NCBI RefSeq assembly: GCF_013297935.1
Contig: NZ_JAAFIX010000004.1
Span: forward strand, 154,168-218,167
DNA length: 64,000 bases
Reading direction: 5' to 3'
Source: Rhodoferax sp.
GTDB taxonomy: Bacteria; Pseudomonadota; Gammaproteobacteria; Burkholderiales; Burkholderiaceae_C
Shown here: piece by piece, positions 31,702-52,832 of the stretch
Layout of the letters: each line of letters begins with the position of its first letter
How positions within the stretch are numbered: the first letter of the stretch is position 1
Notes under the pieces: generated by a model
Databases searched by the model: none
What the model was told of the DNA's origin: nothing
The model's input: the letters and a program-made list of their open reading frames with translations, nothing else
Made by a program: the position numbers and the translations under genes

Positions 31702-31903
31702 CCACCGGCACTGGCGCAGTGCGCGCCGCTCCTTTATAGTTCGGGCGCGCGCCCCGAAACCGGTGCGCGGGCAAACCTGCCGAGAGGCAGGGACGCAAAG
31801 CCTCCGGTCCTCCCTGCGCAGCAGGCGGATAGCGGGGTTGCTTCTACCAGAGTCTCTGGAGAAACGCGTCTTGCCCTTGTGTGCAACGACCGGACTCCAC
31901 GCG

Positions 31904-32366: not shown

Positions 32367-34301
32367 TCAGAACCCGACGGTGGGTTGCATTTGCGAAGGG
32401 GGCAGGTAGCGCCAGCGCTTGACCAGCGTGGCCAGCATCAAGGCCACGGCACCGGCTGCAGCGACCAAAGTCAGTGGTTGTATCCACTCACCACCGTAGG
32501 CGCCGAACATGGCAGCCCGCACGGCGCGCACGGTCCAGGTCATGGGCATCCACGGGCTGATGGCCTCGTACAGGCCACCACTCAGCTCCACCGGCAGCAC
32601 ACCGCCGGAGGCAGACAGTTGCACCGCCAGAAACACCATGGCAAACACCTTGCCAGCATCCCCCATGGCACGGGAGAGGAAAAGCACGATCATCAAAAAC
32701 GCCATGCCCGCCACGCCGAGGCAGGTGGCAAAGGCCGCTGCATCGTGCACCGGCACCTTCAGGCCCCAGGTCACCATGGCACCCAACAGGGCGGCCTGCA
32801 GGGCCACCACGATCACCGGCACCGTAATTTTGCCCAACAGTTTGGCGGGCGACGAGAAGCGCTTGGCATGCCGCGGCAACACGCGCAAATGAATCAAAAA
32901 TGCCGCCACACCGGCACCCAGCCAGAGTGCGGCGGGAATCACGTTGGGGGCAAACCCGCTGCCGCTGTTGCCGACAACAGCGTCGATTTCCATGATGGGC
33001 TTGACCGAGTTGGCCAGGCCCTCCGGGCTGCCTTCCGGGGTGTCAATAGACGCCGGCAAGGAGTTGGCCAACAGGTCCAACCCGGCTGACAAAGACTGGC
33101 TGCCAGCCTTGAGCTTTTGCAGCCCGTCTGCGAGTTCACCGGCCCCGTGGCTGAGCTGTGTGCTGCCGCTGGCCAGCTCATCGAGTTGGCTGTCTTCGGG
33201 CAACTTGCTCACGGCCTGGCGCACCGCGCCATTCATGGTGCGCATGCCGCTGGTCAGGGTGTTGACCCCGGCGCTCAGCCGCGTGGCACCGTCGGCCAGC
33301 TTTTTCTGCCCATCGGCTGCGATGTGCAGAGCGTCGTCCAGCTGGTTGATGCCACCGGCCAGCTGGCCCACGCCGTCTTTGACGCGACCTGGCAGCAGCA
33401 GGCTGTCGTCGGCCTCGGCTTTGAAGCCGGTGGCGCCTTCCAGTAGTTTGCGGCTTCCGGCTTGGAGCTCGTCCATGCCTTTGATGAGGTCGGTGTGGCC
33501 GCTGACTAAGGCGGCGGCACCCGCGTTGAGCCGGTTGAGCTCGGAGTTGGGGGCGCGTTTGGAATCCAGGGTGCGCAGGCCGTTGCCGAGTTGCTTGAAA
33601 CCGTCTGTGGCCTGGCCTACACCGGTTTGCAGTTTGACGGATCCGCTGGACAAGGCCCGCCCGGCATTGGCCGCTTTGGTGGTGCCGGTGTGGAGCTCTT
33701 CAGCGCCTGAGCGCAACGAGGCGACGCCCGCGCGCAAGGCGTCGACACTGCGTTGGGAGCCTGCTGCATCGGTCAGCACCATGGACCATCGCCGCTCGTT
33801 GAGGCTTTCGTTGACTTCGTGGCCCAGCTCGTTGGCAAACTGCTTGGCAAGTGCTGCTGTCTGGAAGTTGTTGCCCTCCGAGGCGTACACCACGAGCTTG
33901 CCGCCTCCGGGTTGCGCGCCGGGGATGGCGTTGGAGCTGAAATCTTTGGGAATGATCAGCGCAAAGGCGCGTTTGCCCATGCGCACGTCCTGGCGGGCCT
34001 GCTCGGAGTCGTCGTATTGCACATAACCGAAGCGCGCACTGCGGTTCAAATTAAAAACAACCTGCGACCCCACGTTGAACACATGGTCGCGGTACTGCAC
34101 GCCTTCATCCAGGTTCACTAGGGCCACCGTCAAGGCCTGGCTGTGCGAGCCCGGGTCCCACACGCTGGTGAGGTAAATGGCGGCGTAGACCGATGGCAGC
34201 AAGGCCACCACCACCACGGCGAGCAGCATCTTGGGGTAGCGCAGCAGGATTTGCACCTCATGCCGTGCGACATAGCGCACCTGGTTGGCGAAATTTCTCA
34301 T
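32367..34301 (-). CDS. YhgE/Pip-family membrane protein
   Basis: YLTSVWDP..LTVALVNLDEG N-domain; xxxLxxG heptad repeats; C-terminal TM bundle with SASGGVLPVEL and WMPMTW. Confidence 0.85.
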   Translation of the reverse strand: MRNFANQVRYVARHEVQILLRYPKMLLAVVVVALLPSVYAAIYLTSVWDPGSHSQALTVALVNLDEGVQYRDHVFNVGSQVVFNLNRSARFGYVQYDDSEQARQDVRMGKRAFALIIPKDFSSNAIPGAQPGGGKLVVYASEGNNFQTAALAKQFANELGHEVNESLNERRWSMVLTDAAGSQRSVDALRAGVASLRSGAEELHTGTTKAANAGRALSSGSVKLQTGVGQATDGFKQLGNGLRTLDSKRAPNSELNRLNAGAAALVSGHTDLIKGMDELQAGSRKLLEGATGFKAEADDSLLLPGRVKDGVGQLAGGINQLDDALHIAADGQKKLADGATRLSAGVNTLTSGMRTMNGAVRQAVSKLPEDSQLDELASGSTQLSHGAGELADGLQKLKAGSQSLSAGLDLLANSLPASIDTPEGSPEGLANSVKPIMEIDAVVGNSGSGFAPNVIPAALWLGAGVAAFLIHLRVLPRHAKRFSSPAKLLGKITVPVIVVALQAALLGAMVTWGLKVPVHDAAAFATCLGVAGMAFLMIVLFLSRAMGDAGKVFAMVFLAVQLSASGGVLPVELSGGLYEAISPWMPMTWTVRAVRAAMFGAYGGEWIQPLTLVAAAGAVALMLATLVKRWRYLPPSQMQPTVGF

Positions 34302-35947
34302 GGCTGCTCCGGTGAATGCGGGCGCGCCGGCGGTGGAGCCCATTGCGCGGGCGGCACCGTCTTCGCCACGGCCGGGTCGGCAATGTATTGGGGCGACATG
34401 ATCTGTACCCCGAAGGTGTTGAACACGTCTTGAATATTGGCGTGCAAAGCGCTCAACACCTCAGCCCGCGGACGCGGTTCGTGCGGAATGGCCTGACACA
34501 CCAGGCGGTACACCGGGTACCAGTCGGAAAGTGCCGTCTGGAAGACTTGAGGCGCGGGGTGGGCCTGAATGCCCTCGGTGCGCAGCGCCGCATCGATCAG
34601 CATGGCGTGGACCTGGCGCCAAGGTGTGTCGTAACCGATGGTGACGGTGGTGTCGACCACATAGCCCGGGCCGTTCACCGTGCGGGAGTAGTTTTTGGTG
34701 GTGCTGGCCAGCACACTGCTGTTGGAGATGGTGAGCTCTTCACCCAGCCCGGTGCGGATGCGGGTGGCGAACATGCCGATCTCGGTCACCGTGCCTTCCT
34801 GGTCGGCAATGCGCACGTATTCTCCTTTGCGGTAGACCCGGCCGTAGGTCAGTATCAGACCACTGGCGGCTTGCCCCACCAGGTTGGAGGCCCCGAGCGA
34901 AATCATCAAACCCACCAGCACCGACAAGCCTTTAAAGGCCTCGGTGCCGGCACCCGGCAAATAGGGGTAGGCCATGGCCAGAGCAAAAAGCCAGATCAGC
35001 ACTTTGGCGATGCGGCGGGTGGGCACGGCGACATCGGCATCCAGCCAGGCGAGGGTGTGCTCGTCTTCCAGTACCCGCTCAAAAAACCGGTCCATGCTGC
35101 GGCTGAGCAGGCGCGCTAAGTAGAAGATCACGCCCGCAGTAAACAGGCCCGGCACAGCCCCTGCGATGGCGCTGCCCGCCTGCGCTGCAAAGTTGAGCAA
35201 GTAGCCGTTGAGCGCCTCGCCCCAGGCGCGGGTGTACGGAAAGCGGCTCAACACAAAGCTCAGCCACTCGTATACCAGCAGGGCCTGCAGCAGCCTGAGC
35301 ACGGTGTTGATCCCGCGGCGCACCAAGCTCACGGCCCGGTTGCGGTTGAGCAGGCTGATGCCGCCGAGTTGCAGCCGGGCGGCTTGTTCTGCGGAGAACT
35401 GCAACAGGCGTTTGCCCAAGGCACTGTGCATGCGCTGCAAAGCCATCCACACGCCCAGCGCCACCACCGTGGCACCGGCCACCCAAGCCAGCGCTTTGGC
35501 GATGGCATCCAGGTCGCGGCTCTCGCGGCTTTCGGCAATGGCCATCTCCAGGGCCGACTGCACTTGGGCTGCTGTGGCGTCCAGGGTGTCCTGGGCGCTG
35601 GCATCGACTTCAGCGGCAGTCACTACAAAGGTGGTGGCACCGTCTATCTGGATCAGCATGCCCATGGCATCAGGCTTGCGGCTGACGCGGTGCGGGCCGC
35701 TCTGGTCGAGCTGGGCGTGCAGGCGGGTGCGGGCGCGTTGCGCCCGGTCGGCGGCAGAAACCCCGCCCAAATCGCCGCGGAAAGTGATGACCGGCCGGTT
35801 GTAAAACGAGAGGGTAGCAGCGGCAGGCACCGGGGCCGCTGCGGCTGCCGCCAGCGCGGCAGGGGGTAGCGTCGTCTCGGTGGGTTGCGCAGTTGCGCTC
35901 CCGGTCCACACCGACAGCACAAGCCAAAGAGCCAAAAAGAATTTCAT
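34298..35947 (-). CDS. MscS-family mechanosensitive channel with periplasmic N-terminal extension
   Basis: Signal peptide; TMs; GEYVRIADQEGTVTEIGMFATRI; VTIGYD; NIQDVFNTFGVQIMSP. Confidence 0.85.
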   Translation of the reverse strand: MKFFLALWLVLSVWTGSATAQPTETTLPPAALAAAAAAPVPAAATLSFYNRPVITFRGDLGGVSAADRAQRARTRLHAQLDQSGPHRVSRKPDAMGMLIQIDGATTFVVTAAEVDASAQDTLDATAAQVQSALEMAIAESRESRDLDAIAKALAWVAGATVVALGVWMALQRMHSALGKRLLQFSAEQAARLQLGGISLLNRNRAVSLVRRGINTVLRLLQALLVYEWLSFVLSRFPYTRAWGEALNGYLLNFAAQAGSAIAGAVPGLFTAGVIFYLARLLSRSMDRFFERVLEDEHTLAWLDADVAVPTRRIAKVLIWLFALAMAYPYLPGAGTEAFKGLSVLVGLMISLGASNLVGQAASGLILTYGRVYRKGEYVRIADQEGTVTEIGMFATRIRTGLGEELTISNSSVLASTTKNYSRTVNGPGYVVDTTVTIGYDTPWRQVHAMLIDAALRTEGIQAHPAPQVFQTALSDWYPVYRLVCQAIPHEPRPRAEVLSALHANIQDVFNTFGVQIMSPQYIADPAVAKTVPPAQWAPPPARPHSPEQP

Positions 35948-36015: not shown

Positions 36016-37140
36016 TCAGGCATTGTGTTGGGTGTAACGGGCGATATGCCGCCGGTCGCTCCAGTCTTTGAGCCAGCGCCAAGGCCGGCCGGTGGCGCAG
36101 TAGCTGCCCCAGCCCGCCACCGCTTGCTGGCCGCTGTAAAGCAGGTGCAGGGCTTGCCCGCCGGCCGGTGCCGCATGGAGGCTGTCGCCGGCTGCCGCCG
36201 CGGGCAGGTTGCGCGCCAGCATAGGGTTGCCATCTGCCACCGCAAACACCTGGGGGTGATTGGTGCTGCGCTGGTAGGCATCGGTGGCAATGCGGCCGTG
36301 GGCATCGAGGGCCAGGCCACTGTTTTCCAACCAGACCGGAGACTGGGATTGCAAGGCAATCAAGGGCACGTCGCAGGCGAGCTGCGCGCCACAGCCCAGG
36401 TGCACCGCGTCGGCACGGATCGCGACCGCCACATCTTGCAGGACCGTGATGCGCTGCGCTTTCATGGCGGCGACCAGACGGGCGTTCACCGGGTGGTCGA
36501 GTTGCACGCCGCCCTCGCCGGGTTGGATCACTAGCGTGACGGCACTGTGCGCAAGCCGCTGGCGCACCGCCAAGGCCAGCTCCAGCGCGGCCGTGTGGTC
36601 GCCGATCACGGTAATCCGCAGCGATTTGCTGTGCGCCAGTTCGCAGACCCTGGGCCACAGCTGGGCAAAGGTTTCCAGCGGGTGCGCAAACAAACCGAAC
36701 TCGCGCGCACCGGGAATGTCGCGCTCCAACTGCTCGCGGTTTTGCACGGGCCCGGTGTTCACCGACAACCAGTCGTAATGCTGGCTGCTGCCGTCGTCGA
36801 GCTGCAGGGTTTGCTGGGTGGCGTCGAGCGCCTTGACATGGCGCTGCAGCCAGCGGATGCCGGCGCGGCGCACCAGCGGCTCCAGGGGAATGGCGCACTC
36901 TTCCAGGCTGTAGCGGCCCGCTACCAGACCGGGCAGCATGCCGGGGTAGATGGTCCGCGGGAAAGGGGCCACCAGGGTGACGCGCATCTCGGCCAGCGGC
37001 TTGGCGGCCAGCGCGCTGAGCACGTTGAGGTTGGCCATGCCGGCACCCAGCAACACCAGTTGGCGGGGTTGGTAACCCCGCGCATCGGTGCCATGGGTGG
37101 AGTCCACAGAGTCTTGGAGATGCGCGGCCAGAGCGTTCAT
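36016..37140 (-). CDS. Pyridine nucleotide-disulfide oxidoreductase-like protein, paralogous to the N-terminal domain of the SelD fusion
   Basis: LVLLGAG; YPGMLPGLVAGRY..IPLEPL; YDWLSVNTG. Confidence 0.75.
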   Translation of the reverse strand: MNALAAHLQDSVDSTHGTDARGYQPRQLVLLGAGMANLNVLSALAAKPLAEMRVTLVAPFPRTIYPGMLPGLVAGRYSLEECAIPLEPLVRRAGIRWLQRHVKALDATQQTLQLDDGSSQHYDWLSVNTGPVQNREQLERDIPGAREFGLFAHPLETFAQLWPRVCELAHSKSLRITVIGDHTAALELALAVRQRLAHSAVTLVIQPGEGGVQLDHPVNARLVAAMKAQRITVLQDVAVAIRADAVHLGCGAQLACDVPLIALQSQSPVWLENSGLALDAHGRIATDAYQRSTNHPQVFAVADGNPMLARNLPAAAAGDSLHAAPAGGQALHLLYSGQQAVAGWGSYCATGRPWRWLKDWSDRRHIARYTQHNA

Positions 37141-37143
37141 GGT

Positions 37144-37197
37144 GCTATTGTTTCATGAGCTGCAGGGCGTTGACAAATCCGAGGCTACTGCCGCCCG
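37144..37197 (-). repeat. 54-bp element, copy 8 (degenerate; supplies the DUF3047 stop)
   Basis: Reverse complement ...cagTAGCCTcggatttgtcaacgccctgcAGCTcatgaaacaatAGC; spacer is 1 nt longer. Confidence 0.55.
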
Positions 37198-37936
37198 AGT
37201 TGTCCGAATCCGCACCCACCACGATGGCCAGCAGCGGCGGCACGGTGGTGGTTTCGTTGCCGAAGGCTTCCAGGAAGTCGGCCTGCAGGTCCCGCTTCTG
37301 GGCCACCCAGCGGCCTAGCGGTTCGCCGCTGCCGCGTAGCACACGCAAGCGCACCCTAGCGGTGTAGGCGTTGTTGAGCGCCGTGCCGCTCGGCAAAACA
37401 CTGTCCCACAGGTAGCACAGGGTGGCGCCGGGCAGCGCCTCGCCACTCACCCGGCGGGCCAGACGCAAGAGGTTGCGCTCCACAAAAGGGATGTTCTCCA
37501 GCGGCATGTCAAACAGAGCGCAGACCTTCAGGGCCGCATCGTCCCCAGTTTTGCGGCGCAGATCGGCGCCCGCCAGCGGCTGGTCCAGGCGCCACTGCCA
37601 TTGCAAAAAGCGCGCCTCGCTCCCGCCGGGTACCGCGTGGCTGAGGGCGCCGTAGCTCTTGTCGCTGCGCAGGCGCAGCACTTGCTGGCCGTCCAGCGCA
37701 GCTATGTCCGGTGCGAGCAGAGGCACTTTGCCGCCGGGCAGCCCGATCACCCGCCAAGGTGCCGGGGGTGTGCCGTCTGCCGCGTGGGCCCAGCTTTGCA
37801 GCACACCGGCCGGCTCGGAGCCGCTGGTCTGCGCCCGGGCACTCCCGCAGGCCAGGAGCATGAAAAGCAAGCAAAAAGTGCCTGTAGCCCACACAGAATA
37901 TGCGCGACCAGCTATCAATTCAGGAGCGTTTCTCAT
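37145..37936 (-). CDS. DUF3047-family exported protein
   Basis: LQWQWRLD; GDDAALKVCALFD; LCYLWD; WVAQKRDLQADF; GADSDNSG. Confidence 0.75.
   Translation of the reverse strand: MRNAPELIAGRAYSVWATGTFCLLFMLLACGSARAQTSGSEPAGVLQSWAHAADGTPPAPWRVIGLPGGKVPLLAPDIAALDGQQVLRLRSDKSYGALSHAVPGGSEARFLQWQWRLDQPLAGADLRRKTGDDAALKVCALFDMPLENIPFVERNLLRLARRVSGEALPGATLCYLWDSVLPSGTALNNAYTARVRLRVLRGSGEPLGRWVAQKRDLQADFLEAFGNETTTVPPLLAIVVGADSDNSGGSSLGFVNALQLMKQ
37874..37927 (+). repeat. 54-bp element, copy 9 (selD-DUF3047 junction)
   Basis: aaaagtgcctgTAGCCCacacagaataTGCGCgaccAGCTatcaattcaggAGC; encodes APELIAGRAYSVWATGTF and contains the selD stop. Confidence 0.85.
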
Positions 37937-40244
37937 GCTTCACCTCTATATAAACCGGCGCGTCTCCAGTGTGCGCCGCGCGTACGTGACCGATGGCGCA
38001 CGCGGCGTCGTAGCCCTGTGCGTGCAGTGCCGCCAGACACGCGGCGGCCTGGTCGGCGGGCACGCTGGCCAGCAGCCCACCGGCTGTTTGCGGGTCTACC
38101 AGCAGCGGCCATAGCGGCTGGGCCATGGCCTCGGCGGCGTTGTGTACGCCATGTTGTTGGCGCGCATTGGCGCTGTGCAAGGAGCTGAGCAGGCCCTGCT
38201 GCACACACTCCAGCGCGCCGTCCAGCAGGGGCAGCTGGTCAGCTTGCAGCACCACCTGTACAGCGCTGGGGCGGGCCATTTCTACCGTGTGGCCAATCAG
38301 CCCGAAGCCGGTTACGTCGGTGCAGGCGGTGGCGCCATGCTGCTGCAGCACGGCGGCGGCGGCCTGGTTGCTGTGCTGCATGCTGCGCAGTGCTGCCTGC
38401 ACCCAGCGGCCGGTCGCGGCAGCGCGGCCGTGGGCGGCAAACAGGGCGCCGGTGCCCAGCGGCTTGGTGAGCAGCAGCACATCGCCGGGCTGCATGCCGC
38501 TTTTGCGCAGCACGCCGGTCAGGTGGCCGTGGGCGTCCACATCTACCAGGCCGTTGACTGCAAAGCCCAACGCAAGCTCGGCGCCTTCGCCGCTGTGCCC
38601 ACCGACCAGCGTGCAACCCGCCGCGTTGAGCACCTCGACGGCACCCTGCATCATCTGGCGCAGGGTGGCTTCTACCTGCCGGTCCACGCCCGGCGGCACG
38701 GTGGCAATGGCAGTGGCTGTGTGGGGCCGGGCGCCCATGGCAAACAAGTCGCCCAGTGCGTGGTTGGCGGCTATGCGGCCGAACACATAGGGGTCGTCCA
38801 CGAAGGCCCGGAAAAAATCGACGCTGTGCACCAGCGCTTTGCCTGGCGGCACCCGCACCACGGCGGCGTCGTCCGGGCTGTCCAGGCCCAGCAGCACATC
38901 GGGGTTGGGTTGCACCCACAGGGTTTGCAGGGCACGCGAGAGCACGCTGGCCCCCACCTTGGCACCACAGCCGCCACAGCGCATGGCGACTGCGGCTTGC
39001 GCCTGTTGGGCTTCATCAGCGTTTAGTTGAATGGATGCATTGGCGGATGTCCTGGCCGGAGTCATATTTGAGAGGCCGGCGAGCCCATTCGCGCCCTGCA
39101 CGCTGAAGCGTTGCATAAAGCGGCGGTCTATCCAGTCCTTCCAGCGCCAGACCCAAGCACCTGCAAAGCCGAGTGCGCCGCGTGAGGCTACGGCGTATTG
39201 GTCGCCGGTGCTGATGAGCGCGAGCCAGCGGCGCTGCGGGTGGTAGGGCTGCAAGGGCAGGCCCTGCACCGCGCGCTGCAAATTGATGGCCAGCGGCATG
39301 CCCATGCGCACCGCAAACACACCGGCCTTCTCCAGCGCAAAGTTCTCCATGGCCGCCACATCGCCCGCCGCAAACACGCGCGGGTCGGTGATGCTTTGCA
39401 GGGTGTCGTGCAGGCGGATGCAACGGTTGTCTGTGAGCGCCAAGCCCATGGTTTGCAGCCAAGTACCGCCACCGGCTTGGGTGACCCAGAGCACCTCGTC
39501 GGCCTCAAACCACGTGCCCTGCGCGCTGCGCAAGCGGTCCGGTTGCACTTCTGCGACCGGCGTTTGCAAGTGCACTTGCACGCCGCGTGCCGCCAGCACC
39601 TGGGCAAAACGAGCCTGCACGCCGGGGTTGTGGGTGGGCAGCAGGCCGTCGGAGGTGAACAGGTGGAACCGGGGTGCCAAGTCCCCGCGCCCTGCCGCGC
39701 GGGCCTCGGCCATCAGCCGGTGCTGCATGGCCAGGCACAGTTCTACCCCGCCCGCGCCACCGCCCACGATGGCAATCGACAGCGGCCGCGTGGCGTGCGC
39801 TGCCTTGTCCAGCAACTGCAGCCAGCGCTGATTGAAGCCGGTGATGGGTTTGACCGGCACGGCGTGTTCCGGGGCCCCCACCGCGCGCATTTGCGGGGTG
39901 GAGCCGGTGTTGATGGAGACCACGTCGTAGTCAATGTCCGGCCGGCCGCGCAGTTGCACTGTGCGGGCTTCGCGGTCGAGGCCGATGACTTCAGCCTGGA
40001 TGAACCGGGCGCCGGTGGCTGCGCACAAACGGCACAGGTCAATGTGCACCTCGTCATACGTGTAGTGCCCCGCCACATAGCCCGGCAGCATGCCTGAGTA
40101 GGGCGTGTGCGCGTCGGTGCAGATCAGGGTGATGCGCACACCCGGCAGCGGGTGCATGGCGAAGTAGCGCAGCGCCACCACATGGCTGTGGCCGCCGCCC
40201 ACCAACACGATGTCTCTGACGATGGGCGTGGCTTTTGTTTGCAT
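37920..40244 (-). CDS. selD: Fusion of an N-terminal FAD oxidoreductase domain and selenide,water dikinase
   Basis: VLVGGGHSH, YSGMLPG and VFAAGD in the N-part; MRCGGCGAK (Cys/Lys matching E. coli C17/K20), DDAAV, SVDFF, LGDLFAMG, GGHS, TDVTGFGL, DPQTAGGLL in the C-part. Confidence 0.88.
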   Translation of the reverse strand: MQTKATPIVRDIVLVGGGHSHVVALRYFAMHPLPGVRITLICTDAHTPYSGMLPGYVAGHYTYDEVHIDLCRLCAATGARFIQAEVIGLDREARTVQLRGRPDIDYDVVSINTGSTPQMRAVGAPEHAVPVKPITGFNQRWLQLLDKAAHATRPLSIAIVGGGAGGVELCLAMQHRLMAEARAAGRGDLAPRFHLFTSDGLLPTHNPGVQARFAQVLAARGVQVHLQTPVAEVQPDRLRSAQGTWFEADEVLWVTQAGGGTWLQTMGLALTDNRCIRLHDTLQSITDPRVFAAGDVAAMENFALEKAGVFAVRMGMPLAINLQRAVQGLPLQPYHPQRRWLALISTGDQYAVASRGALGFAGAWVWRWKDWIDRRFMQRFSVQGANGLAGLSNMTPARTSANASIQLNADEAQQAQAAVAMRCGGCGAKVGASVLSRALQTLWVQPNPDVLLGLDSPDDAAVVRVPPGKALVHSVDFFRAFVDDPYVFGRIAANHALGDLFAMGARPHTATAIATVPPGVDRQVEATLRQMMQGAVEVLNAAGCTLVGGHSGEGAELALGFAVNGLVDVDAHGHLTGVLRKSGMQPGDVLLLTKPLGTGALFAAHGRAAATGRWVQAALRSMQHSNQAAAAVLQQHGATACTDVTGFGLIGHTVEMARPSAVQVVLQADQLPLLDGALECVQQGLLSSLHSANARQQHGVHNAAEAMAQPLWPLLVDPQTAGGLLASVPADQAAACLAALHAQGYDAACAIGHVRAAHTGDAPVYIEVKHEKRS

Positions 40245-40296
40245 AGGCGTGAATTGTGCTGCGACCCGCAAAGCGGCGGAGCGTGGGGGCACTATT

Positions 40297-42480
40297 TCAG
40301 CCGCGTTTCCAGTCGTGGAACTTGCGCACCCACTCCAATAGTTTGTGGGGCTGGTGCGCGCGCTTCCATTCACCTGCCGCGTATTTGTTCGCTTCAGCTA
40401 GCGTGGGGTAGGTGTGGATGGTGCCCAAAATCTTGTTCAGGCCCAGCCCGTGTTTCATGGCCAGCACGTACTCAGCCAGTAGGTCGCCCGCGTGGGTGCC
40501 GACGATGGTCACGCCCAGAATCTTGTCTTTGCCCGGCACGGTCAGCACCTTCACAAAGCCGTGGGCCTCGCTGTCCGCAATCGCGCGGTCCAGGTCGTCA
40601 ATGCCGTACTTGGTGACCTCGTAAGCAATGCCTTGGTCTTTGGCGTCCTGCTCGTTCAGGCCTACGCGCGCCACCTCGGGGTCGATGAAGGTGGCCCACG
40701 GGATGACCGAGTAGTCGGCCTTGAACTTTTTGAAGTCACCGAACAGCGCATTCACTGCCGCATACCAGGCCTGGTGCGCCGCCACATGGGTGAACTGGTA
40801 GGGCCCGGCCACATCGCCCGCCGCAAAAATGTTGGGGTAGATGGTCTGCAGGTACTCATTGGTGTGCACCGTTTTGTGGGTGGGAATGCCCAAGTCTTCG
40901 AGGCCATAGCCCGTGAGCCGCGCCGTGCGGCCCACGGCACACAGCAGCTGGTCGAAGGCAATGCGCTTCTCCACGCCTGCGTGTTCCACCACCAGCACCT
41001 TTTCGCCATCCACCAACTCGCAGCGCAAGGCCTTGTGGCTGGTGAGCAGGTCCACGCCATCGGCGCGCAGGGATGCCGCGGCAAGTTCCGACACCTCCAT
41101 GTCTTCCCGCGCCATGATGCGCGGCGCCATTTCCACCTGAGTGACGGCGGAGCCCAGCCGCGCAAAGCTCTGCGCCAGCTCGCAACCAATCGGCCCGCCG
41201 CCCAGCACCACGAGGCGCTTTGGCACTTCGTCGAGCTTGGCAAATTCATCCCACAGCGTGTCGCTGGTGACATAGCCCACCGCGTCCAGCCCGGGCAGGG
41301 GCGGCACAAAGGGGCGCGCACCGGCGGCGATGACGATGCTGCGCGTGGTCAGCGTCTGTGTGCCGCCGCCGTTGAGCGCGATCTCTACTGTCCAGGGGTT
41401 GATGATCTTGGCGTAGCCCTGCAGCACCTCAACACCGAGGCCGGTGTAGCGCTCCACGCTGTCGTGCGGCTCGATGGCAGCAATCACCTCGTGAATGCGC
41501 TGCATCACCGTTTTGAACGAAAACAGGCTCTGGCCCTCGCCGGATATGCGCGATGCGCTATGTAAACCATAGCGCTCTGCATGTTGCATCTGGTGAGCGA
41601 GCTTGGCGCTTTTGATCAAGGCTTTGCTGGGCACGCAGCCGTAGTTCAGGCAGTCGCCGCCCATTTTGTGGGCCTCCACCAGCGTGACCTTGGCCTTGAC
41701 CGCGGCCGCAATATAGGCCGACACCAGCCCGCCCGCACCACCGCCGATGACAACCAGGTTGCGGTCAAAAGTCTTGGGGCGCACGGTGTTCCAGCGGGCG
41801 TACACCTTGCGTTGTTGGATGAAATTCATCAGCGCCTTCGCGATCAAGGGAAACACGCCTAGCAGCACAAACGCACCCAGCAGCTGGGGGCTGGCGACGT
41901 CTTTGAGCGACTGCAGCTCTGCCAGCCGGGTGCCGGCGTTCACATACACCGCCGTGCCGGCCAACATGCCGAGCTGGCTCACCCAATAAAACGTGCGGGT
42001 GCGCATGGTAGTCAGGCCCATGAGCAGGTTGATCACGAAAAACGGCACCACCGGAATCAAGCGCAGGCTGAAGAGGTAGAGCGCGCCGTCGCGGGCCACG
42101 CCGGCATTGATGTCTGCCAGGCGGGCGCCGAAGCGGGCCTGCACCACATCGCGCAGCACAAAACGGGCGGTCAGAAACGACAGTGTGGCGCCGATGCTGG
42201 ACGCAAACGACACCAGCAGCAGCCCCCAGCCCAGCCCGAAGACGCCACCACCGGCCAAAGTCAGAATTGCCGCGCCGGGCAAGGAGAGGGAGGCCACCGC
42301 CACATACACCCCGAAAAACGCCGCACGCAGGGTCCACGGGTTCTCGGCGTAGTACTGAGCCAAAGCGGCCTGGCTTTGGCGTAAAGCGTCCAGGCTCAAA
42401 AAGCGCCCCAGGTCCAGCGCCACAAACGCGGCAATGGCCAATGCCACCACGCCCACTACCAACCATTTGGAAGCCTTCAT
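40297..42480 (-). CDS. DedA/TVP38 membrane domain fused to a class-I flavoprotein disulfide reductase
   Basis: LSLPGA, LRLIPVVPFFVIN (DedA); GGGAGG, GGDCLNYGCVPSK, GGGPIGCE, FAAGD, HTYPTLAE. Confidence 0.88.
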   Translation of the reverse strand: MKASKWLVVGVVALAIAAFVALDLGRFLSLDALRQSQAALAQYYAENPWTLRAAFFGVYVAVASLSLPGAAILTLAGGGVFGLGWGLLLVSFASSIGATLSFLTARFVLRDVVQARFGARLADINAGVARDGALYLFSLRLIPVVPFFVINLLMGLTTMRTRTFYWVSQLGMLAGTAVYVNAGTRLAELQSLKDVASPQLLGAFVLLGVFPLIAKALMNFIQQRKVYARWNTVRPKTFDRNLVVIGGGAGGLVSAYIAAAVKAKVTLVEAHKMGGDCLNYGCVPSKALIKSAKLAHQMQHAERYGLHSASRISGEGQSLFSFKTVMQRIHEVIAAIEPHDSVERYTGLGVEVLQGYAKIINPWTVEIALNGGGTQTLTTRSIVIAAGARPFVPPLPGLDAVGYVTSDTLWDEFAKLDEVPKRLVVLGGGPIGCELAQSFARLGSAVTQVEMAPRIMAREDMEVSELAAASLRADGVDLLTSHKALRCELVDGEKVLVVEHAGVEKRIAFDQLLCAVGRTARLTGYGLEDLGIPTHKTVHTNEYLQTIYPNIFAAGDVAGPYQFTHVAAHQAWYAAVNALFGDFKKFKADYSVIPWATFIDPEVARVGLNEQDAKDQGIAYEVTKYGIDDLDRAIADSEAHGFVKVLTVPGKDKILGVTIVGTHAGDLLAEYVLAMKHGLGLNKILGTIHTYPTLAEANKYAAGEWKRAHQPHKLLEWVRKFHDWKRG

Positions 42481-42490
42481 GGCAACCCTT

Positions 42491-43096
42491 TCAAGAAAAT
42501 GCGCGCCATCCCCACCAAATGCGGGTGGCGGTGGTCACGGCACAGAGCGCCGCAAAGGTGTAGGCCAGTGGCGCGAAATGCGCAGGCCACAGGCACATGG
42601 CCACAAAGAAGGCCAGCGTCTCGGTGGCCTCGGTCAGCCCGCCCAAAAAATAAAACGATTTGTCGGGGTAGGCCAGGTTGTCCATGCCGCGCTTGGCCGC
42701 GAGGGCGGCAAAAGCCAGAAAGCTGCTGCCAGTGCCAATAAATGCGGCCAGCAAGGCGGCGGCAGGTAGCGCGTGCCCGGCCGGGTTGGCCACTGCAAAC
42801 GCCAATGGAATGCTGGCGTAAAACACAAAGTCCAGCGAAATGTCGAGGAATCCGCCTGCGTCTGTGGGCTGTGTTTCGCGGGCGACGGCGCCGTCCAGTC
42901 CATCGAGCAATCTAGAGCCTAAAAGGGCTATAGCCCCCGCAAAATATGCGCCGGTAGCTATCAAAATTGCAGCAAACATGCCGACGCCAAAGCCCGTCAA
43001 GGTGACGGTGTTGGCTCCGACGCCGGCGCGCACCAGCACGCGTGCCACGGCCCGCAGGGGCGGGCGCAACAAGGGGGTCGCGAATCGGTCGAGCAT
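42491..43096 (-). CDS. ynjF: CDP-alcohol phosphatidyltransferase family protein
   Basis: DGLDGAVAR...GGFLDISLD CDP-OH motif; FIGTGSSFLAFAAL and KSFYFLGGLTE. Confidence 0.85.
   Translation of the reverse strand: MLDRFATPLLRPPLRAVARVLVRAGVGANTVTLTGFGVGMFAAILIATGAYFAGAIALLGSRLLDGLDGAVARETQPTDAGGFLDISLDFVFYASIPLAFAVANPAGHALPAAALLAAFIGTGSSFLAFAALAAKRGMDNLAYPDKSFYFLGGLTEATETLAFFVAMCLWPAHFAPLAYTFAALCAVTTATRIWWGWRAFS
42920..42973 (+). repeat. 54-bp element, copy 10 (inside ynjF)
   Basis: taaaagggctaTAGCCCccgcaaaataTGCGCcggtAGCTatcaaaattgcAGC; encodes AAILIATGAYFAGAIALL. Confidence 0.85.
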
Positions 43097-43102
43097 GGCG
43101 GG

Positions 43103-43657
43103 TCAGGGCAGCAGGTCGGCCACGCTGTCCCACACCTCGGGGGCGAGGCGGCCTTCAAAGCGCTGCACTATCTGGCCCCTGGTGTCGATCAGCAGGGTCA
43201 GCGGGAGGCGGGTGCCGGCGGGCAGCTCACCGTCCAGGCGCACCGAGAGCAGGCCTTTGGCGTTCATCTGAGTCTGGTTGACTAGCTTTTCGTAGGTCTG
43301 CCAGTCGCTGGCTTTGCGGTCCAGGTTCACCAGCAGCAGGCTGAAGGGCTTGGTTTTCCAACCGGCCAGGTTGGCGCGCAGCTCAGGCAGGCTGTCGCGG
43401 CAGACGGCGCAGTTGCTGTTCCAGAAAAATGCCACGGTCACATTGCCGTCGAGGGCGCTGGCCGCGAAGCGCTGCCCGTTGGCGTAGGTGGCAGGCAGCT
43501 GCAGGCGGTTGCCCTTGCCCAGCGCCGTGCCGGTGTCCTCCGCGGTTGCGGTGGCCGACTGCGCTGCGGCGCCGCCTGCCAGGCCCGCCGTCAGGGCGAG
43601 GGTCAGCAAGCCGCACCAGGAAGCGCGTTGCCAGAGGTGTGGGAGTGGGTTGTGCAT
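43103..43657 (-). CDS. Exported TlpA/ResA-like thioredoxin
   Basis: Signal peptide; FWNSNCAVC (CxxC); LPLTLLIDTRG. Confidence 0.75.
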   Translation of the reverse strand: MHNPLPHLWQRASWCGLLTLALTAGLAGGAAAQSATATAEDTGTALGKGNRLQLPATYANGQRFAASALDGNVTVAFFWNSNCAVCRDSLPELRANLAGWKTKPFSLLLVNLDRKASDWQTYEKLVNQTQMNAKGLLSVRLDGELPAGTRLPLTLLIDTRGQIVQRFEGRLAPEVWDSVADLLP

Positions 43658-43712
43658 GGGGCGAGTCTAAGGGGGCTTGGCTTTTCCCTTGGTCGCTCAC
43701 GTGCACTGTTTC

Positions 43713-44351
43713 TTACACAGCAGGCTCTGAGCCGAGCAGGGTGAGGTGCGCGGTGTCCGCGATATCTGCCGCATCGTGGGTGACCAGCAGGGCAGGTATG
43801 GCGCGCCGGGCCACCAGGCCGAAGACCAGCGCACGCATGCGCCCGCGCAGCGCCGCGTCGAGTTTGGAGAAGGGCTCGTCGAGCAGCAGGGCTCTGGGTT
43901 GCGCCAGGAGCGCGCGGGCCAGGGCCACACGGGCCCGCTGTCCGCCGGAAAGGCGGGCGGGGTCGGCGTGCAGGTGGTCTTGCATTTCTACATCGCGCAG
44001 GGCGGCTTGCACTGCGTCTTCGCGCTCAGCGCGCGCGCCGGCGGGCACGGCAAATAGCAGGTTTTCGCGGACGGTCATGTGGGCGAACAGCAGGTCGTCC
44101 TGAAACAGCAGACCGACGCGGCGGGCGCGTACCGGGAGCGTGTCGATGCGCTCACTGTTCAGGTTGATGCGGCCTTCCCATTGCATGCCGGCCTCCAGGG
44201 TGCCGCACACGGCGGCCAGCACACTGCTTTTGCCGCAGCCGCTGGGGCCCATCAGGGTGTGCACGGTGCCTGCCGGCAGGTGCAGGTGGAGCTTTTGCAC
44301 CAGCAGACCCGCGGGGCTGGCGAGGCGGTCTATGTGAATATCGAGGCTCAT
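43713..44351 (-). CDS. ABC transporter ATPase, YnjD-like
   Basis: GPSGCGKS; LSGGQRAR; LLLDEPF; lacks a C-terminal regulatory domain. Confidence 0.88.
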   Translation of the reverse strand: MSLDIHIDRLASPAGLLVQKLHLHLPAGTVHTLMGPSGCGKSSVLAAVCGTLEAGMQWEGRINLNSERIDTLPVRARRVGLLFQDDLLFAHMTVRENLLFAVPAGARAEREDAVQAALRDVEMQDHLHADPARLSGGQRARVALARALLAQPRALLLDEPFSKLDAALRGRMRALVFGLVARRAIPALLVTHDAADIADTAHLTLLGSEPAV

Positions 44352-44785
44352 GAGGCGACCCGCACCGTGCCGTCGGCCTCCACCACCACCGGGATGGGCA
44401 GCAGCGACTCCCCCTCGCAATCGCCGGAGGTGCACAGGCCATCGCTCCAGCGGTAGTGGGCGTAGTGCACATTGCAAGTGATGCGCTTATGGGGTACGAA
44501 TTGCAGCAAGTCCTGGCGCGCGGCCAGCGGCACGCCGAAATGGGCGCAACGGTTCACAAACGCCAGGACCCCGCTGCCGCTGCGCAGCAAGAGGTAGCGG
44601 AACACAGCCCCGGGGGCCGAGGCCGTGTCACTGCCGGAAGCCAGCTCATGCAGCGTGGCACTGCCGTCGGGCAGGGTGTTGCGCTGGCCCAGCACCGCCC
44701 CGGGCGCCGGAGCATGGGCGATCTGGTGCCAGTGTCGGGGCTCGGCCGGGTCTTGGGGCAGGGGCAGAGAGGGGGGCGAAGTCAT
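44348..44785 (-). CDS. Rieske [2Fe-2S] ferredoxin-like protein
   Basis: NRCAHFGVPL ... ITCNVHYA (CxH...CxxH). Confidence 0.8.
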   Translation of the reverse strand: MTSPPSLPLPQDPAEPRHWHQIAHAPAPGAVLGQRNTLPDGSATLHELASGSDTASAPGAVFRYLLLRSGSGVLAFVNRCAHFGVPLAARQDLLQFVPHKRITCNVHYAHYRWSDGLCTSGDCEGESLLPIPVVVEADGTVRVAS

Positions 44786-44789
44786 GGCT

Positions 44790-46463
44790 TTATTGTGCCG
44801 CCGCAGGCCAGCGCCGCGGGCGGCCCCACCAGGCGGCCAGGCCGAACATCAGCATCGGCAACAGCCACTGCAACCAGGCGAAGGCGGCGGTCAGGGCGCG
44901 CTGGCCGCCGGAGGCTAGTGTTACTGCCTCGGTGGTGACTGTCTGAAACCGCCCGGCGCCCACGTACAAGGTGGGCAAATACTGCGCCACGCTCACCGCA
45001 AAGCCCACGGCAAGCGCTGCAGCCAGCGCGCTGCGCAGCAAAGGCCACTTCACGTGCCACAAAAAGGCGGCGCGGCTGCGCCCGAGGGTGGCACTTACCC
45101 GGGCCAGTCGCCCATCGACCGCGCCATAGGGGCCTTGCAGTGCGATCAGCACATAGGGCAGTGCACTCAAGGTGTGGGCTAACCAGAGGCCTATGGCCCG
45201 GCCGTCCAGACCCCAGGCGATGCTGAGCCGGTGCAGGCCCACCACCCAGAGCACAGCTGGCAGCACCAAAGGCAACATCCAAAGAGGGCGCAGGCGCTGC
45301 TGCCAGCGGGGTGGCACCCATTCCAGCCAGGCGACCACCCAGACCAGCGCGGCCGCCGCACTGCACAGCCCGAGGCCCAAGGTCGTCCAGACCGTGCCGC
45401 TGCTCTGCAACACACCGGTCCAGGCCTGCAGGGTCCACACCTCAGGCAGCAGCTTCGGAAACGGCCACGGCCCCGAAACGCTACCCAGTGCCAGCGCGCC
45501 GAGCACCGCGGCGTAAATGCCCAGCAACACCGACAAGGGGCGGCGTGATGCCGAAGGCTTGGCCGCCTTGCTGACCCCGGGAGAGAAGCGGACTCCGCGC
45601 ACCTGGCGTTGACGCCATAGCGGCCAGGCCCGCCACCCGGCCCAGCCAGCCGCCGTCACCAGCAGGAGCAAGGTGAGCAGCCAAGCGGCACTTGCGCCCA
45701 CGGCGTTGGTCGCCGGGTCGGCGTCTTGCAGCCATTGCCACGTCAACATGGCCAAGGTAGGCGGGGTGGTGGGGCCGATGATGAGCGCCATATCTACCAC
45801 CGTGAGGCTGTAGGCCAGCACCGCCAACAAGGGGGCCCGGAGGGCGCGCACCAGCTGCGGCCAGCCGATGCGCCACCAAGCCTGCGCATCGGTGTAGCCC
45901 CAGAGGGCGGCAAGGCGCAGGGATTGCCGCAATTGCGCCTGCACACCGGGTTGCTGCACATGGGCCCAGGCGGCCCAGAGCAGAAACGGTATTTCTTTGA
46001 GCACCAGCGCGGCGATCAGCCCCAAGCCCCACGGGTCCTGGGTGGTTGACCATGCGGGGGGCAACTCCAGCCCGCTGGGCCAAGGAGACACCAGGCGCAA
46101 CAGCCAGCCGCCGGGTGCGATCAACGCCACCATGCCGATGGCAAATGCTGCATGGGGCACAGAGAGCAAGGGTGAGAGCCAACGGGCCCAATCGCCAGAC
46201 AGATGCCCGGTCCCGGGTGCGGCAAGCCAGCGCCCCAGCATGAAAGCCGTGATTCCGGTCGAGATCAAGGTGGCACAAAGCCCGGTCCAGAGCGTCATGC
46301 CCAGTGCGGGCAGGGTTTGCGGGTGCTGCCAGAGTGCGGCCCAGGCGGCGGTCTGCGCCCAATCGGTGAAGGTGCTGCCCAAGGCCCAGAGCAGTGGTGT
46401 GCCCGCTAGGAGCAGGAGAAGGGTCGCGCCGACGGGGAAACGGGGTGCAGGAGCGGCAGGCAT
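44790..46463 (-). CDS. ABC transporter permease (two fused permease domains), YnjC-like
   Basis: LSVPHAAFAIG; KEIPFLLW; YSLTVVDMA..GPTTPPTL; SVAQYLPT..GAGRF.T.TTEAV. Confidence 0.82.
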   Translation of the reverse strand: MPAAPAPRFPVGATLLLLLAGTPLLWALGSTFTDWAQTAAWAALWQHPQTLPALGMTLWTGLCATLISTGITAFMLGRWLAAPGTGHLSGDWARWLSPLLSVPHAAFAIGMVALIAPGGWLLRLVSPWPSGLELPPAWSTTQDPWGLGLIAALVLKEIPFLLWAAWAHVQQPGVQAQLRQSLRLAALWGYTDAQAWWRIGWPQLVRALRAPLLAVLAYSLTVVDMALIIGPTTPPTLAMLTWQWLQDADPATNAVGASAAWLLTLLLLVTAAGWAGWRAWPLWRQRQVRGVRFSPGVSKAAKPSASRRPLSVLLGIYAAVLGALALGSVSGPWPFPKLLPEVWTLQAWTGVLQSSGTVWTTLGLGLCSAAAALVWVVAWLEWVPPRWQQRLRPLWMLPLVLPAVLWVVGLHRLSIAWGLDGRAIGLWLAHTLSALPYVLIALQGPYGAVDGRLARVSATLGRSRAAFLWHVKWPLLRSALAAALAVGFAVSVAQYLPTLYVGAGRFQTVTTEAVTLASGGQRALTAAFAWLQWLLPMLMFGLAAWWGRPRRWPAAAQ

Positions 46464-46491: not shown

Positions 46492-46854
46492 TTAATCTTC
46501 CCAGTCCATCGCTCCTTTGGCCCACTCATAGGCAAAACCGATACACAGAATGCCGAGGAACACCATGCCGGCCATGAAGCCGGGAAACCCGATGTCCTTG
46601 AGAGCCAGCGCCCAAGGAAACAGGAAGGCAATTTCCAGGTCAAAAATAATGAAGAGGATGGCAACCAGATAGAAGCGCACGTTGAATTGCATGCGCGCAT
46701 CGCCAAAGGGCTCAAACCCACATTCGTAGGCTGAGCCCTTGGCGGGGTCCGGCCGGTTGGGACCCAGAAGGTACCCCGCCAGCTGGGGGAGCACCCCCAC
46801 TGCAATTCCCACTGCAATAAACAGCAGGACCGGCAGGTAATGCTCCAGGTTCAT
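46492..46854 (-). CDS. nuoA: Stand-alone NADH:quinone oxidoreductase subunit A paralog
   Basis: AYECGFEPF; [15 protein letters not shown]; EWAKGAMDW; no nuoB follows. Confidence 0.85.
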
Positions 46855-47780
46855 CAGGCTTGCTGGATACCAGCCAACACCCAACCGCCTTGGCCTTGGC
46901 GGGACTTAGTGAGGTGCCAGATTTCGTCGAAGGTTTCGTCGTCGGAACCTGCGCCGAAGCGGATGAAGCCGGTGAACTTGACGCTCACTACATAGCGCTG
47001 GGCTTCTTCCGCCACTTCAAGCACGGTGGTGTCGATGCGGACCACTTCGCCAGGCTGTGCCGAGGTTTCGCGCTCTGCAAAGTCGAGCTTGATTTCCGCG
47101 AACATTTCTGGCGTGGTGAACTCACGGATGTCATCGAGGTTGCCAGCGTCGTAGGCAGCTTGCAAACGGATGAAGTTCACTTTGGCATTGCGCTCGAAGG
47201 CAGCACGGTCAAAGTCAGCTGGAATGGCAGCCGCTACGGGCTGGCCACCAATGTCGGCACCGATCAACGAGCCGGAGGACGAACCGCCCATGCCGGACGC
47301 TGCTGGTGTCGCCATTTTGTAGGCCTGTTGGGGCATTCCTGCACCACCTTGGCCAGCCGACGCGCCGGCTGGCATCAAGCCACCTGCACCGGCCATACCG
47401 CCTTGGCGTGCCATGGCCCGCTTGCGCAAAATGAAGCCGATGACCGCCATGACGGCAAATGCCACCAGGGCCATGGTCATCATGGACGCCAGCTCATCGC
47501 CAAAACCGAAGTGCGATGCCAATGCGGCGATACCCAGGCCCGCTGCGATACCAGCGACTGGCCCCATCCAAGAGGGTTTGGAAGCTGCAGCTGCGCCTGC
47601 ACCGGCGGCCGGTGCCGCGTTTTGTGCGGTGGGGGCTGCAGGCGCTTTGTCTTGGGTGGCTTGCCGCTGGGTGCCCATGGACTTGCCGCCGCCCAGCCGC
47701 TTGGCCGCTTCGGCGTCCACAGAAACGCTGGCAATGCCCAGCGAGAACACTACCGCAAGGACGGAAAGAAGTCTTTTCAT
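46854..47780 (-). CDS. Tim44-like domain protein
   Basis: Signal peptide; [10 protein letters not shown]; [13 protein letters not shown]; [18 protein letters not shown]; EIWHL; WVLAGIQQ. Confidence 0.85.
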
Positions 47781-47858
47781 GTCGATCTCCTGAAAAATGA
47801 ATGACAAGCGGAGATTACGGGGAAAAAGAACCATTAAAAACCAGTGCTTATGAGAAGA

Positions 47859-50515: not shown

Positions 50516-52832
<2,317 letters not shown>

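Follow-up and report, generated by a model that had tools for sequence, protein, structure and literature searches.

The nine minus-strand genes at positions 36016-46463 of a Rhodoferax sp. sequence were found to form an array which merges the known Ndh-SelD fusion, a YnjC-YnjD-YnjF unit and a widespread trio of a DedA::disulfide reductase fusion, DUF3047 and a TIGR03169-like flavoprotein. The sequence, called the window here, is the whole stretch of 64,000 nucleotides (nt) that was analysed (G000:C25:154168-218167), and the host, with a genome of 3.6 Mb that is 99.98% complete, is presumably an aerobic freshwater betaproteobacterium. The array is a new variant joining four uncharacterised families to selenium or metalloid handling. 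The explanation favoured here, which is held tentatively, is a chalcogen/metalloid uptake and reduction module that feeds SelD, which in turn feeds SelU. The trio is best seen as a general module for metalloid/chalcogen uptake, reduction and hand-over, here wired to SelD; it is considered general rather than selenium-specific because it accompanies ArsS in most genomes. The functional tie of the accessory genes to Ndh-SelD is well supported by their repeated adjacency in varied arrangements, their specificity for the Ndh form, the synteny within the clade and the co-expression of the E. coli genes with yedEF. A new selenophosphate-consuming pathway is poorly supported, and no new selenium product is indicated by the data. 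The central Ndh-SelD fusion was already known; what is new is the embedding of selD in the Ynj/DedA-reductase/DUF3047 array and the mutual exclusion of YnjF and ArsS. The locus joins the Ndh domain of SelD, the ynj genes, the DedA::reductase and DUF3047 in one predicted operon.

The gene content and spacing were taken from the listing of open reading frames (ORFs) together with Pfam and NCBIfam scans (Table 1). All nine genes are co-directional, in the order YnjC, Rieske, YnjD, TlpA-like, YnjF, DedA::disulfide reductase, Ndh::SelD, DUF3047 and second Ndh-like flavoprotein. The successive intergenic gaps after correction of the starts are +4, -7, +55, +6, +10, +52, -17 and +4 nt. The result is in accordance with an earlier note, made from the sequence alone, which had described a tight minus-strand array with gaps of about 55 nt or less. 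The spacing suggests a single transcript across the array, and a consensus scan of the array for promoters and terminators gave no signal exceeding shuffle expectation. The start of YnjD is probably at 44354, in an ORF open from 44477, and that of the SelD ORF is probably at 40244 rather than at the GTG at 40373.

Table 1. Genes of the array, the adjoining genes and the separate ynjB gene, in window positions unless a contig is named (aa, amino acids; ABC, ATP-binding cassette; CDP, cytidine diphosphate; FAD, flavin adenine dinucleotide).
Feature	Position	Strand	Basis and remarks
YhgE/Pip-family membrane protein	32367..34343	-	TIGR03061 and TIGR03062 above cut-offs; possible array member
MscS-like channel	34298..35947	-	Pfam MS_channel domains; 68 nt after the array; membership doubtful
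Stand-alone Ndh-like (TIGR03169-like) paralogue	36016..37140	-	TIGR03169 204 bits, below the cut-off of 310
DUF3047 exported protein, lipobox-like LLAC	37145..37936	-	PF11249 160 bits; overlaps the selD stop by 17 nt
Ndh-like flavoprotein domain (TIGR03169) fused to SelD, Cys form	37920..40244	-	TIGR03169, TIGR00476, CGGCGAK
DedA (TVP38/YdjX-type) domain fused to class-I FAD/NAD(P)H disulfide reductase	40297..42480	-	Pfam VTT_dom, Pyr_redox_2, Pyr_redox_dim
YnjF orthologue, CDP-alcohol phosphatidyltransferase	42491..43096	-	55% identity over 197/201 aa to E. coli YnjF
TlpA/redoxin-like exported thiol:disulfide oxidoreductase	43103..43657	-	Pfam AhpC-TSA/Redoxin, NCBIfam TlpA, signal-like N-terminus, CAVC
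YnjD-type ABC ATPase	43713..44354	-	49% identity to E. coli YnjD; Pfam ABC_tran
Small cytoplasmic Rieske [2Fe-2S] protein	44348..44785	-	Pfam Rieske weak, 25.7 bits; CAH...CNVH motif present
YnjC-type double-domain ABC permease, 557 aa	44790..46463	-	35% identity, full length, to E. coli YnjC (blastp)
NuoA paralogue	46492..46884	-	Pfam Oxidored_q4 132 bits; 28 nt upstream of ynjC; membership doubtful
YnjB substrate-binding protein	G000:C25:219019-220128		50% identity to E. coli YnjB; 527 bits on NF008633

The N-terminal domain of the Ndh-SelD protein scored 476 bits against a cut-off of 310 on the NCBIfam model TIGR03169 ('Nterm_to_SelD'), and its closest PDB sequences are type-II NADH dehydrogenases (NDH-2) and sulfide:quinone reductase (SQR). 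The SelD domain scored 298 bits against a cut-off of 125 on TIGR00476 over model positions 6-310, which cover the whole AIRS/AIRS_C core. The catalytic cysteine and lysine claimed in the earlier note were found intact in the motif CGGCGAK at residues 423-429, which is invariant in nine homologues. The SelD domain is intact and is predicted to be a selenophosphate synthetase. A SelD-like fusion that is not SelD (TIGR04369, 'fusion_not_SelD') was rejected at 453 bits against a cut-off of 700, and homologues of the fusion at 59-89% identity are annotated as SelD, those at 87-89% coming from Rhodoferax, Curvibacter and other Comamonadaceae. This fusion is the single SelD gene in the whole host genome.

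The fusion is not new, its architecture having been in print since 2008 (PMC2398784, PMC2432076, PMC4561486). Ndh-SelD is by far the commonest SelD fusion (Mariotti et al. 2015, PMC4561486); Zhang and colleagues reported that every fusion of this kind has a CxxC motif in its active site, and that such fusions, frequent among bacteria of aquatic habitats, made up about 40% of the Cys-SelDs in ocean metagenomes (PMC2398784). The window protein has the identical architecture and the CxxC and shows no difference in itself; the difference lies in its neighbourhood, as the published work does not describe DedA-reductase, DUF3047 or YnjCDF genes around it. The stand-alone Ndh-like paralogue shares 30% identity with the N-terminal part of the fusion and is kept downstream of SelD in 13 loci. 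Its second dinucleotide-binding motif, VIGDHTAA against VGGGAGG in the SelD-fused domain, looks degenerate when judged by eye. The paralogue may thus be unable to bind NAD(P)H and depend on a different electron donor, the Rieske protein being one candidate.

An intact, full-length MnmH/SelU was found in the host genome at G000:C26:207411-208319, with 351 bits on TIGR03167 and 474 bits on NF008752, keeping both the rhodanese catalytic cysteine (CWRGGQRS) and the P-loop (GPTGSGKT). The only SelD copy thus shares its genome with a 2-selenouridine (SeU) system, and selenophosphate therefore has an ordinary destination. The orphan SelD, or fourth selenium trait, was rejected on account of this MnmH; the earlier note had itself named such a pairing beforehand as refuting its premise. 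Its statement that known selenophosphate client genes are absent holds within the window and fails genome-wide, given the gene on contig C26. Of the genes for which it had proposed a genome search, mnmH was found as described, selA gave no match (selB was not searched separately), and SenB (TIGR04348) and ArsS (TIGR04167) reached best matches of 33.7 and 21.4 bits against cut-offs of 300. With the E. coli proteins as tblastn queries, YqeC gave no match in the host genome and YqeB just a 27% XdhC-like partial match. Aragorn listed no selenocysteine tRNA (tRNA-Sec) among the 41 tRNAs of the genome, and a search of it for YedE/YedF found them absent. Because selA, tRNA-Sec, yqeC, SenB, ArsS and YedE/YedF are absent, SelU is the sole known selenophosphate client recognisable from the genome sequence, and no other recognised selenium importer is present. 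The selenium use of the host is reduced to one easily assayed output, tRNA selenouridine, which offers a clean genetic system for the proposed supply role.

The effect of neighbourhood was analysed in 80 loci with Ndh-SelD relatives, compared by tblastn and ORF clustering, and the neighbour counts refer to the 42 loci having at least 5 kb on both sides. In 17 of these 42, a DedA-reductase gene is found no more than 10 kb from Ndh-SelD; DUF3047, YnjF and an Ndh-like paralogue are near Ndh-SelD in 10 each, a SenB-like glycosyltransferase in 20 and an ArsS-like radical S-adenosylmethionine (SAM) gene in 4. The DedA-reductase gene is placed either upstream or downstream when it shares the strand of SelD, and downstream when it is on the opposite strand; 12 or more changes of its adjacency are needed to account for its distribution on the SelD tree. 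The SelD of the window belongs to an 11-member clade with 100% support, having members down to about 63% identity and no SenB nearby. DedA-reductase and YnjF stand beside SelD in eight of these 11 members, and the synteny of the clade comprises DedA-reductase, YnjF, YnjD and YnjC with Ndh-SelD. The full nine-gene order is limited to close Rhodoferax-like relatives (L006-L010). Related clusters were found beyond the clade. In G149, of the window's family, SenA-SenB-SelD, an Ndh-like paralogue, DUF3047 and DedA-reductase are followed by YnjF-D-C-B; in G101, of another family, YnjF-YnjD-YnjC-YnjB, DedA-reductase, Ndh-like paralogue and DUF3047 form one cluster with SelD elsewhere. The earlier note had named the absence of neighbour co-conservation as refuting, and co-conservation was what was found, in the clade synteny, the adjacency in 17 of the 42 loci and genome-level odds ratios of 4 to 9.

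A lineage-specific rearrangement could also have set selD among unrelated membrane and redox genes. The limitation of the nine-gene order to close relatives would fit such mere adjacency, as would the coming and going of the TlpA-like and Rieske genes, the split of ynjB from ynjCD and the placement of DedA-reductase and SelD mostly far apart or on separate contigs in a sample of 400 genomes. This explanation is nevertheless very unlikely. The rate of finding the pair within 10 kb by chance was roughly estimated at below 1% of genomes, against 40% of the full-flank loci for DedA-reductase; the genome-level odds ratios hold across 18 families; and independent evidence comes from E. coli, in which the ynj genes are co-expressed with yedEF (PMC7888660).

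The SenB-like gene is usually accompanied by SenA-like, EgtD-like and PhnCDE-like genes. The senA-senB-senC set is the selenoneine cluster (Kayrouz et al., 10.1101/2022.04.13.486033), and in the 20 related loci where Ndh-SelD adjoins a SenB-like gene it appears to be the SenC. SenA-like, EgtD and PhnCDE-like importer genes are often present there, and nine SenB-like loci also have a DedA-reductase. The host genome differs in having no SenB and only an EgtB/EgtD-like pair elsewhere, on contig C1. In locus L104 (G317:C1:1051002-1070919), from a 1.7-Mb genome, DedA-reductase, ArsS, SenA-like, SenB-like and Ndh-SelD genes lie within about 10.5 kb, an island which unites arsenic-type and selenium-type genes. 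A second, possibly related island of the host genome (L117, G000:C1:634200-646805) encodes a DUF547 protein followed by DUF3179; the DUF547 protein is 68% identical to one adjoining DedA-reductase and DUF3047 in L054. About 10 kb past these two genes are EgtD-like and EgtB/SenA-like genes and another class-I disulfide reductase. The island is probably an ergothioneine-type cluster, since it is without SenB.

YnjC, YnjD and YnjF are, as judged from sequence identity, orthologues of the E. coli ynj products. The locus compared in E. coli K-12 was ydjX-ydjY-ydjZ-ynjA-ynjB-ynjC-ynjD-ynjE-ynjF, and the array is a betaproteobacterial version of this ydj/ynj module, with other redox partners and with selD embedded. 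A DedA domain of the YdjX/YdjZ type is common to the two loci, and each also encodes an Fe-S protein and a thiol-redox protein. In the window, however, the DedA domain is single-copy and is fused to the flavoprotein disulfide reductase, the Rieske and TlpA-like proteins stand in place of YdjY, a lipoprotein of the ferredoxin type, and of the AhpD-like YnjA, and selD, DUF3047 and the Ndh-like paralogue are embedded. No homologue of YdjY, YnjA or YnjE (a rhodanese) was found within the array. The YnjC-type permease also gave weak NCBIfam matches of the ModB/CysT type, and its gene is kept upstream of YnjD/YnjF in L006-L010, L016, L024 and L048. The window's YnjF has the complete family motif D-x2-DG-x2-AR...G-x3-D-x3-D, and its gene is separated from ynjD by the TlpA-like gene. 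The ynjB orthologue is displaced by about 18.7 kb from ynjCD; it lies outside the array, just past the right window end (about 1-2 kb), with ftsY on one side and an OmpA-like and a patatin gene on the other. In G149, G101, G291 and G079, ynjB directly precedes ynjC.

Expression data from E. coli support the link to selenium. The genes ydjXYZ-ynjABCD are one FNR-activated operon (PMC3688515), and independent-component analysis of the transcriptome placed ydjXYZ-ynjABCD, yedEF, yjiLM and ynjE in one uncharacterised iModulon, for which the authors proposed molybdenum/selenium usage, yedEF being genes for a putative selenium transporter and a sulfurtransferase (PMC7888660). The YedE/YedF pair thus resembles the array in its proposed role, selenium supply to SelD, and is co-expressed in E. 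coli with the ynj operon; it differs in having no sequence relationship to the array proteins and in its absence from the host genome.

The co-occurrence of the proteins was examined in a sample of 400 genomes spread evenly over the families of the class, ArsS being counted in 389 of them. The full-length DedA-reductase fusion is present in 105 of the 400, about a quarter of the sampled Gammaproteobacteria, DUF3047 in 89, SelD of any form in 75, the Ndh-SelD type in 37 and YnjF in 14. DedA-reductase is associated with DUF3047 (odds ratio 9.1, p=3e-17) and with Ndh-SelD (odds ratio 6.4, p=2e-7), whereas its odds ratio with stand-alone SelD is 1.2 and not significant. Ndh-SelD is associated with YnjF (odds ratio 6.1, p=0.006). 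Among the 37 Ndh-SelD genomes, 24 carry DedA-reductase, and these are spread over 18 families. In this co-occurrence profiling, which the earlier note had suggested, DedA-reductase, DUF3047 and YnjF associate with Ndh-SelD or with one another at odds ratios of 4 to 9. YnjF directly follows YnjB-C-D in eight genomes of several families, seven of which have SelD; the YnjBCDF unit is unlinked to SelD in G101, G111, G291, G353 and G079.

ArsS (TIGR04167) was surprisingly common, being present in 183 of the 389 genomes (a background of 47%). It is found in 83% of the DedA-reductase, 84% of the DUF3047 and 84% of the Ndh-SelD genomes, with odds ratios of 7-12; those of DedA-reductase and DUF3047 with ArsS (9-12) are stronger than those with Ndh-SelD. 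ArsS also lies within 9 kb of DedA-reductase in 6 of 20 loci, which come from different families. The 'arsenosugar-type' clusters of ArsS thus share the DedA::reductase and DUF3047 families with the array, and differ in that the host genome is without ArsS. Among the 14 YnjF genomes, of 11 families, none has ArsS (p=1.3e-4). Because YnjF genomes never carry ArsS in the sample, ArsS appears to be replaced by the YnjBCDF unit next to the shared module. The tracking of ArsS by the accessory genes and the exclusion between YnjF and ArsS suggest a shared metalloid-handling logic.

These associations also bear on the view that the accessory genes are a general stress or detoxification module for arsenic, selenium and tellurium oxyanions, with SelD placed beside it only through a common response to these elements and not fed by it. 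The association of DedA-reductase and DUF3047 with ArsS, the adjoining of ArsS in the 6 of 20 loci, the majority of carriers being without SelD, the equal closeness of the reductase to the MerA core and to LpdA, and a KatG gene in the neighbourhood of the array all agree with it. The host genome, however, lacks ArsS and no ars genes were seen in the window; the link is to the Ndh-fused and not the stand-alone SelD (odds ratios 6.4 against 1.2), pointing to a functional rather than an ecological tie; and an ABC importer would be odd within such a system. Detoxification is thus unlikely to be the main role, though it keeps some weight.

The DedA part of the DedA::reductase fusion is 31-39% identical to E. 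coli YdjX/YdjZ, and the reductase part has a CLNYGC redox motif and the His-Glu dyad HxxPTLxE of the LpdA and glutathione reductase (GR) type; its closest PDB sequences are the MerA core and LpdA, equally near. An assignment as MerA was rejected (TIGR02053, 354 bits against a cut-off of 454), the C-terminus ...FHDWKRG being without the cysteine pair. According to work cited in PMC11422209, selenite uptake has been linked to a DedA protein. An AlphaFold2 model of DUF3047 from 15 homologues gave a beta-jelly roll with a predicted local distance difference test score (pLDDT) of 90.2 and a predicted template modelling score (pTM) of 0.88. The Foldseek search of PDB returned weak generic matches (TM 0.3-0.57) to glycosidases of glycoside hydrolase families 11 and 12 (GH11/GH12), carbohydrate-binding modules and lectins. 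The transfer of a function from this search was rejected, as the model is confident and the matches are weak and of generic jelly-roll type. The residues W80, D98, Y140, W175, R180, D185, D208 and D210 are invariant, and these acidic and aromatic positions point to a site for binding or hydrolysis. Accessory genes that vary between loci are the TlpA-like gene, present in L006, L008 and L009 only, and the Rieske gene, a lineage-specific insert between ynjC and ynjD which was found in L007-L010 only and is absent from the G149 and G101 versions of the cluster.

In the favoured explanation, supply of reduced selenium to SelD, YnjB with YnjCD and/or the DedA domain would carry a chalcogen species up to the inner membrane or through it; this species is most likely an oxyanion of selenium or a selenium-thiol adduct. 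The cytoplasmic GR/LpdA-type domain and the NDH-2/SQR-like domain on SelD would then reduce it with NAD(P)H to selenide or perselenide, the Rieske protein serving as a possible electron carrier, and the periplasmic part would fall to the exported TlpA-like protein and the lipoprotein DUF3047. The SelD domain is predicted to make selenophosphate, from which MnmH/SelU would make 2-selenouridine in tRNA. The recipient of the reduced product would be SelD in this genome and an ArsS or SenB system in others. The proposal of the earlier note that an importer and reductases deliver reduced selenium, or sulfur or arsenic, is plausible in the light of the co-conservation and the E. coli iModulon, and its caveat of arsenic is apt.

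Several observations weigh against this explanation. SelD is absent from 70 of the 105 DedA-reductase genomes and 63 of the 89 DUF3047 genomes, and since 83-84% of the genomes with either family have ArsS, selenium is not the general substrate. G062 and G127 have YnjF, DedA-reductase and DUF3047 with neither SelD nor ArsS, and five small genomes have YnjF alone, without DedA-reductase, DUF3047 or YnjBCD nearby. The supply model gives YnjF no job, though ynjF is tightly coupled to ynjD, and the trace selenium demand of SeU hardly warrants ten genes. Members of the TMEM41/Tvp38 family are lipid scramblases, and a DedA domain of this kind would suit a lipid role better than oxyanion transport. 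The co-occurrence statistics are uncorrected for phylogeny, genome size and habitat, with the families counted by hand. A literature search gave no functional paper on ynjF, DUF3047 or a DedA(TVP38)::oxidoreductase fusion and no biochemistry of the accessory proteins.

The place of YnjF leads to a second reading, namely a pathway for a lipid carrier or envelope lipid. YnjBCD would import a head-group alcohol; YnjF would join the head group to CDP-diacylglycerol or use a CDP-alcohol; the DedA domain would flip the product; and the fused reductase, the exported DUF3047 and the TlpA-like protein would act on the head group, with selenium or arsenic being carrier cargo or unrelated. The complete phosphatidyltransferase motif of YnjF and the position of ynjF directly after ynjD in eight genomes are consistent with this, as are the jelly roll of lectin/glucanase type and the lipoprotein-type signal of DUF3047. 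The nearest relatives of the YdjX/YdjZ-type DedA proteins are eukaryotic proteins, those of the TMEM41/Tvp38 family (10.1101/2020.12.18.423352). G062 and G127, which retain YnjF, reductase and DUF3047 though they have no SelD, also agree, and the exclusion of YnjF and ArsS would be expected of alternative routes to one kind of conjugate. Set against these are the lack of a known lipid product or function paper for E. coli YnjF, the five genomes in which YnjF stands without the DedA-reductase, DUF3047 and YnjBCD, a head group that nothing in the sequence identifies, and the enrichment with Ndh-SelD, which the lipid reading does not itself explain. A lipid pathway of this kind is accordingly possible and yet improbable.

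The earlier note had gone further and proposed a new pathway consuming selenophosphate, in which YnjF would couple a product of SelD to a lipid or head group. Very little credence is given to such a selenolipid. selD is embedded between DedA-reductase and DUF3047 and overlaps the DUF3047 ORF, the catalytic motif of YnjF appears intact, and the sen cluster gives a precedent of an overlooked SelD-dependent small-molecule pathway (10.1101/2022.04.13.486033). However, SelU is an ordinary client for SelD, the accessory genes mostly occur without SelD, and YnjF, reductase and DUF3047 are found in the SelD-free G062 and G127. It is for these reasons that a new consuming pathway is poorly supported, and G062, G127 and the 70 of 105 genomes disfavour the YnjF step in particular. 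YnjF is alone in five genomes, ynjF is not adjacent to selD in E. coli, and the YnjBCDF unit is unlinked to SelD in the five genomes named above.

A lipid-linked form of selenium delivery, which is quite unlikely, would combine the supply of SelD with a task for YnjF. YnjBCDF and ArsS would be alternative front ends of the DedA::reductase/DUF3047/TIGR03169-like machine, which would handle the metalloid or chalcogen as a membrane-bound conjugate. YnjBCD would import a head group, which YnjF would use to make a dedicated carrier phospholipid; this carrier would be flipped by the TMEM41-type DedA domain, and Ndh-SelD would receive reduced selenium straight from the fused reductase. The complementarity of YnjF and ArsS (0/14), their shared partners and the embedding of selD are the basis for this proposal. 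We know of no description of such a mechanism for any element.

The minus-strand run extends beyond the array on both sides. Downstream are the MscS-like gene, conserved in the closest relatives only (L006, L007, L009 and L010), and the YhgE/Pip gene, which comes after the Ndh-like paralogue in nine loci, among them the less closely related L013, L021, L022 and L024. Upstream are the NuoA paralogue, a Tim44-like gene and an NhaR-like LysR regulator. The NuoA paralogue was not detected in locus L006; a second copy, 70% identical, lies at G000:C1:559701-560057, and a lone complex-I subunit A beside an ABC permease gene is odd. The gene for the Tim44-like membrane protein (46854-47834, minus strand) precedes it. 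The LysR gene was considered as a dedicated regulator of the array and rejected, being NhaR-like and so probably unrelated. The Rfam scan of window positions 30-52 kb gave a c-di-GMP-I riboswitch as its sole match, outside the array. This aptamer (31760-31845, plus strand; RF01051 at 59.7 bits, gathering score 35) is found a short way past the YhgE/Pip gene. A KatG-type catalase-peroxidase of 746 aa is encoded at 50592-52832 on the plus strand, opposite to that of the array and about 4 kb upstream of it, and a GGDEF-EAL-PAS protein is encoded at 53037-55298.

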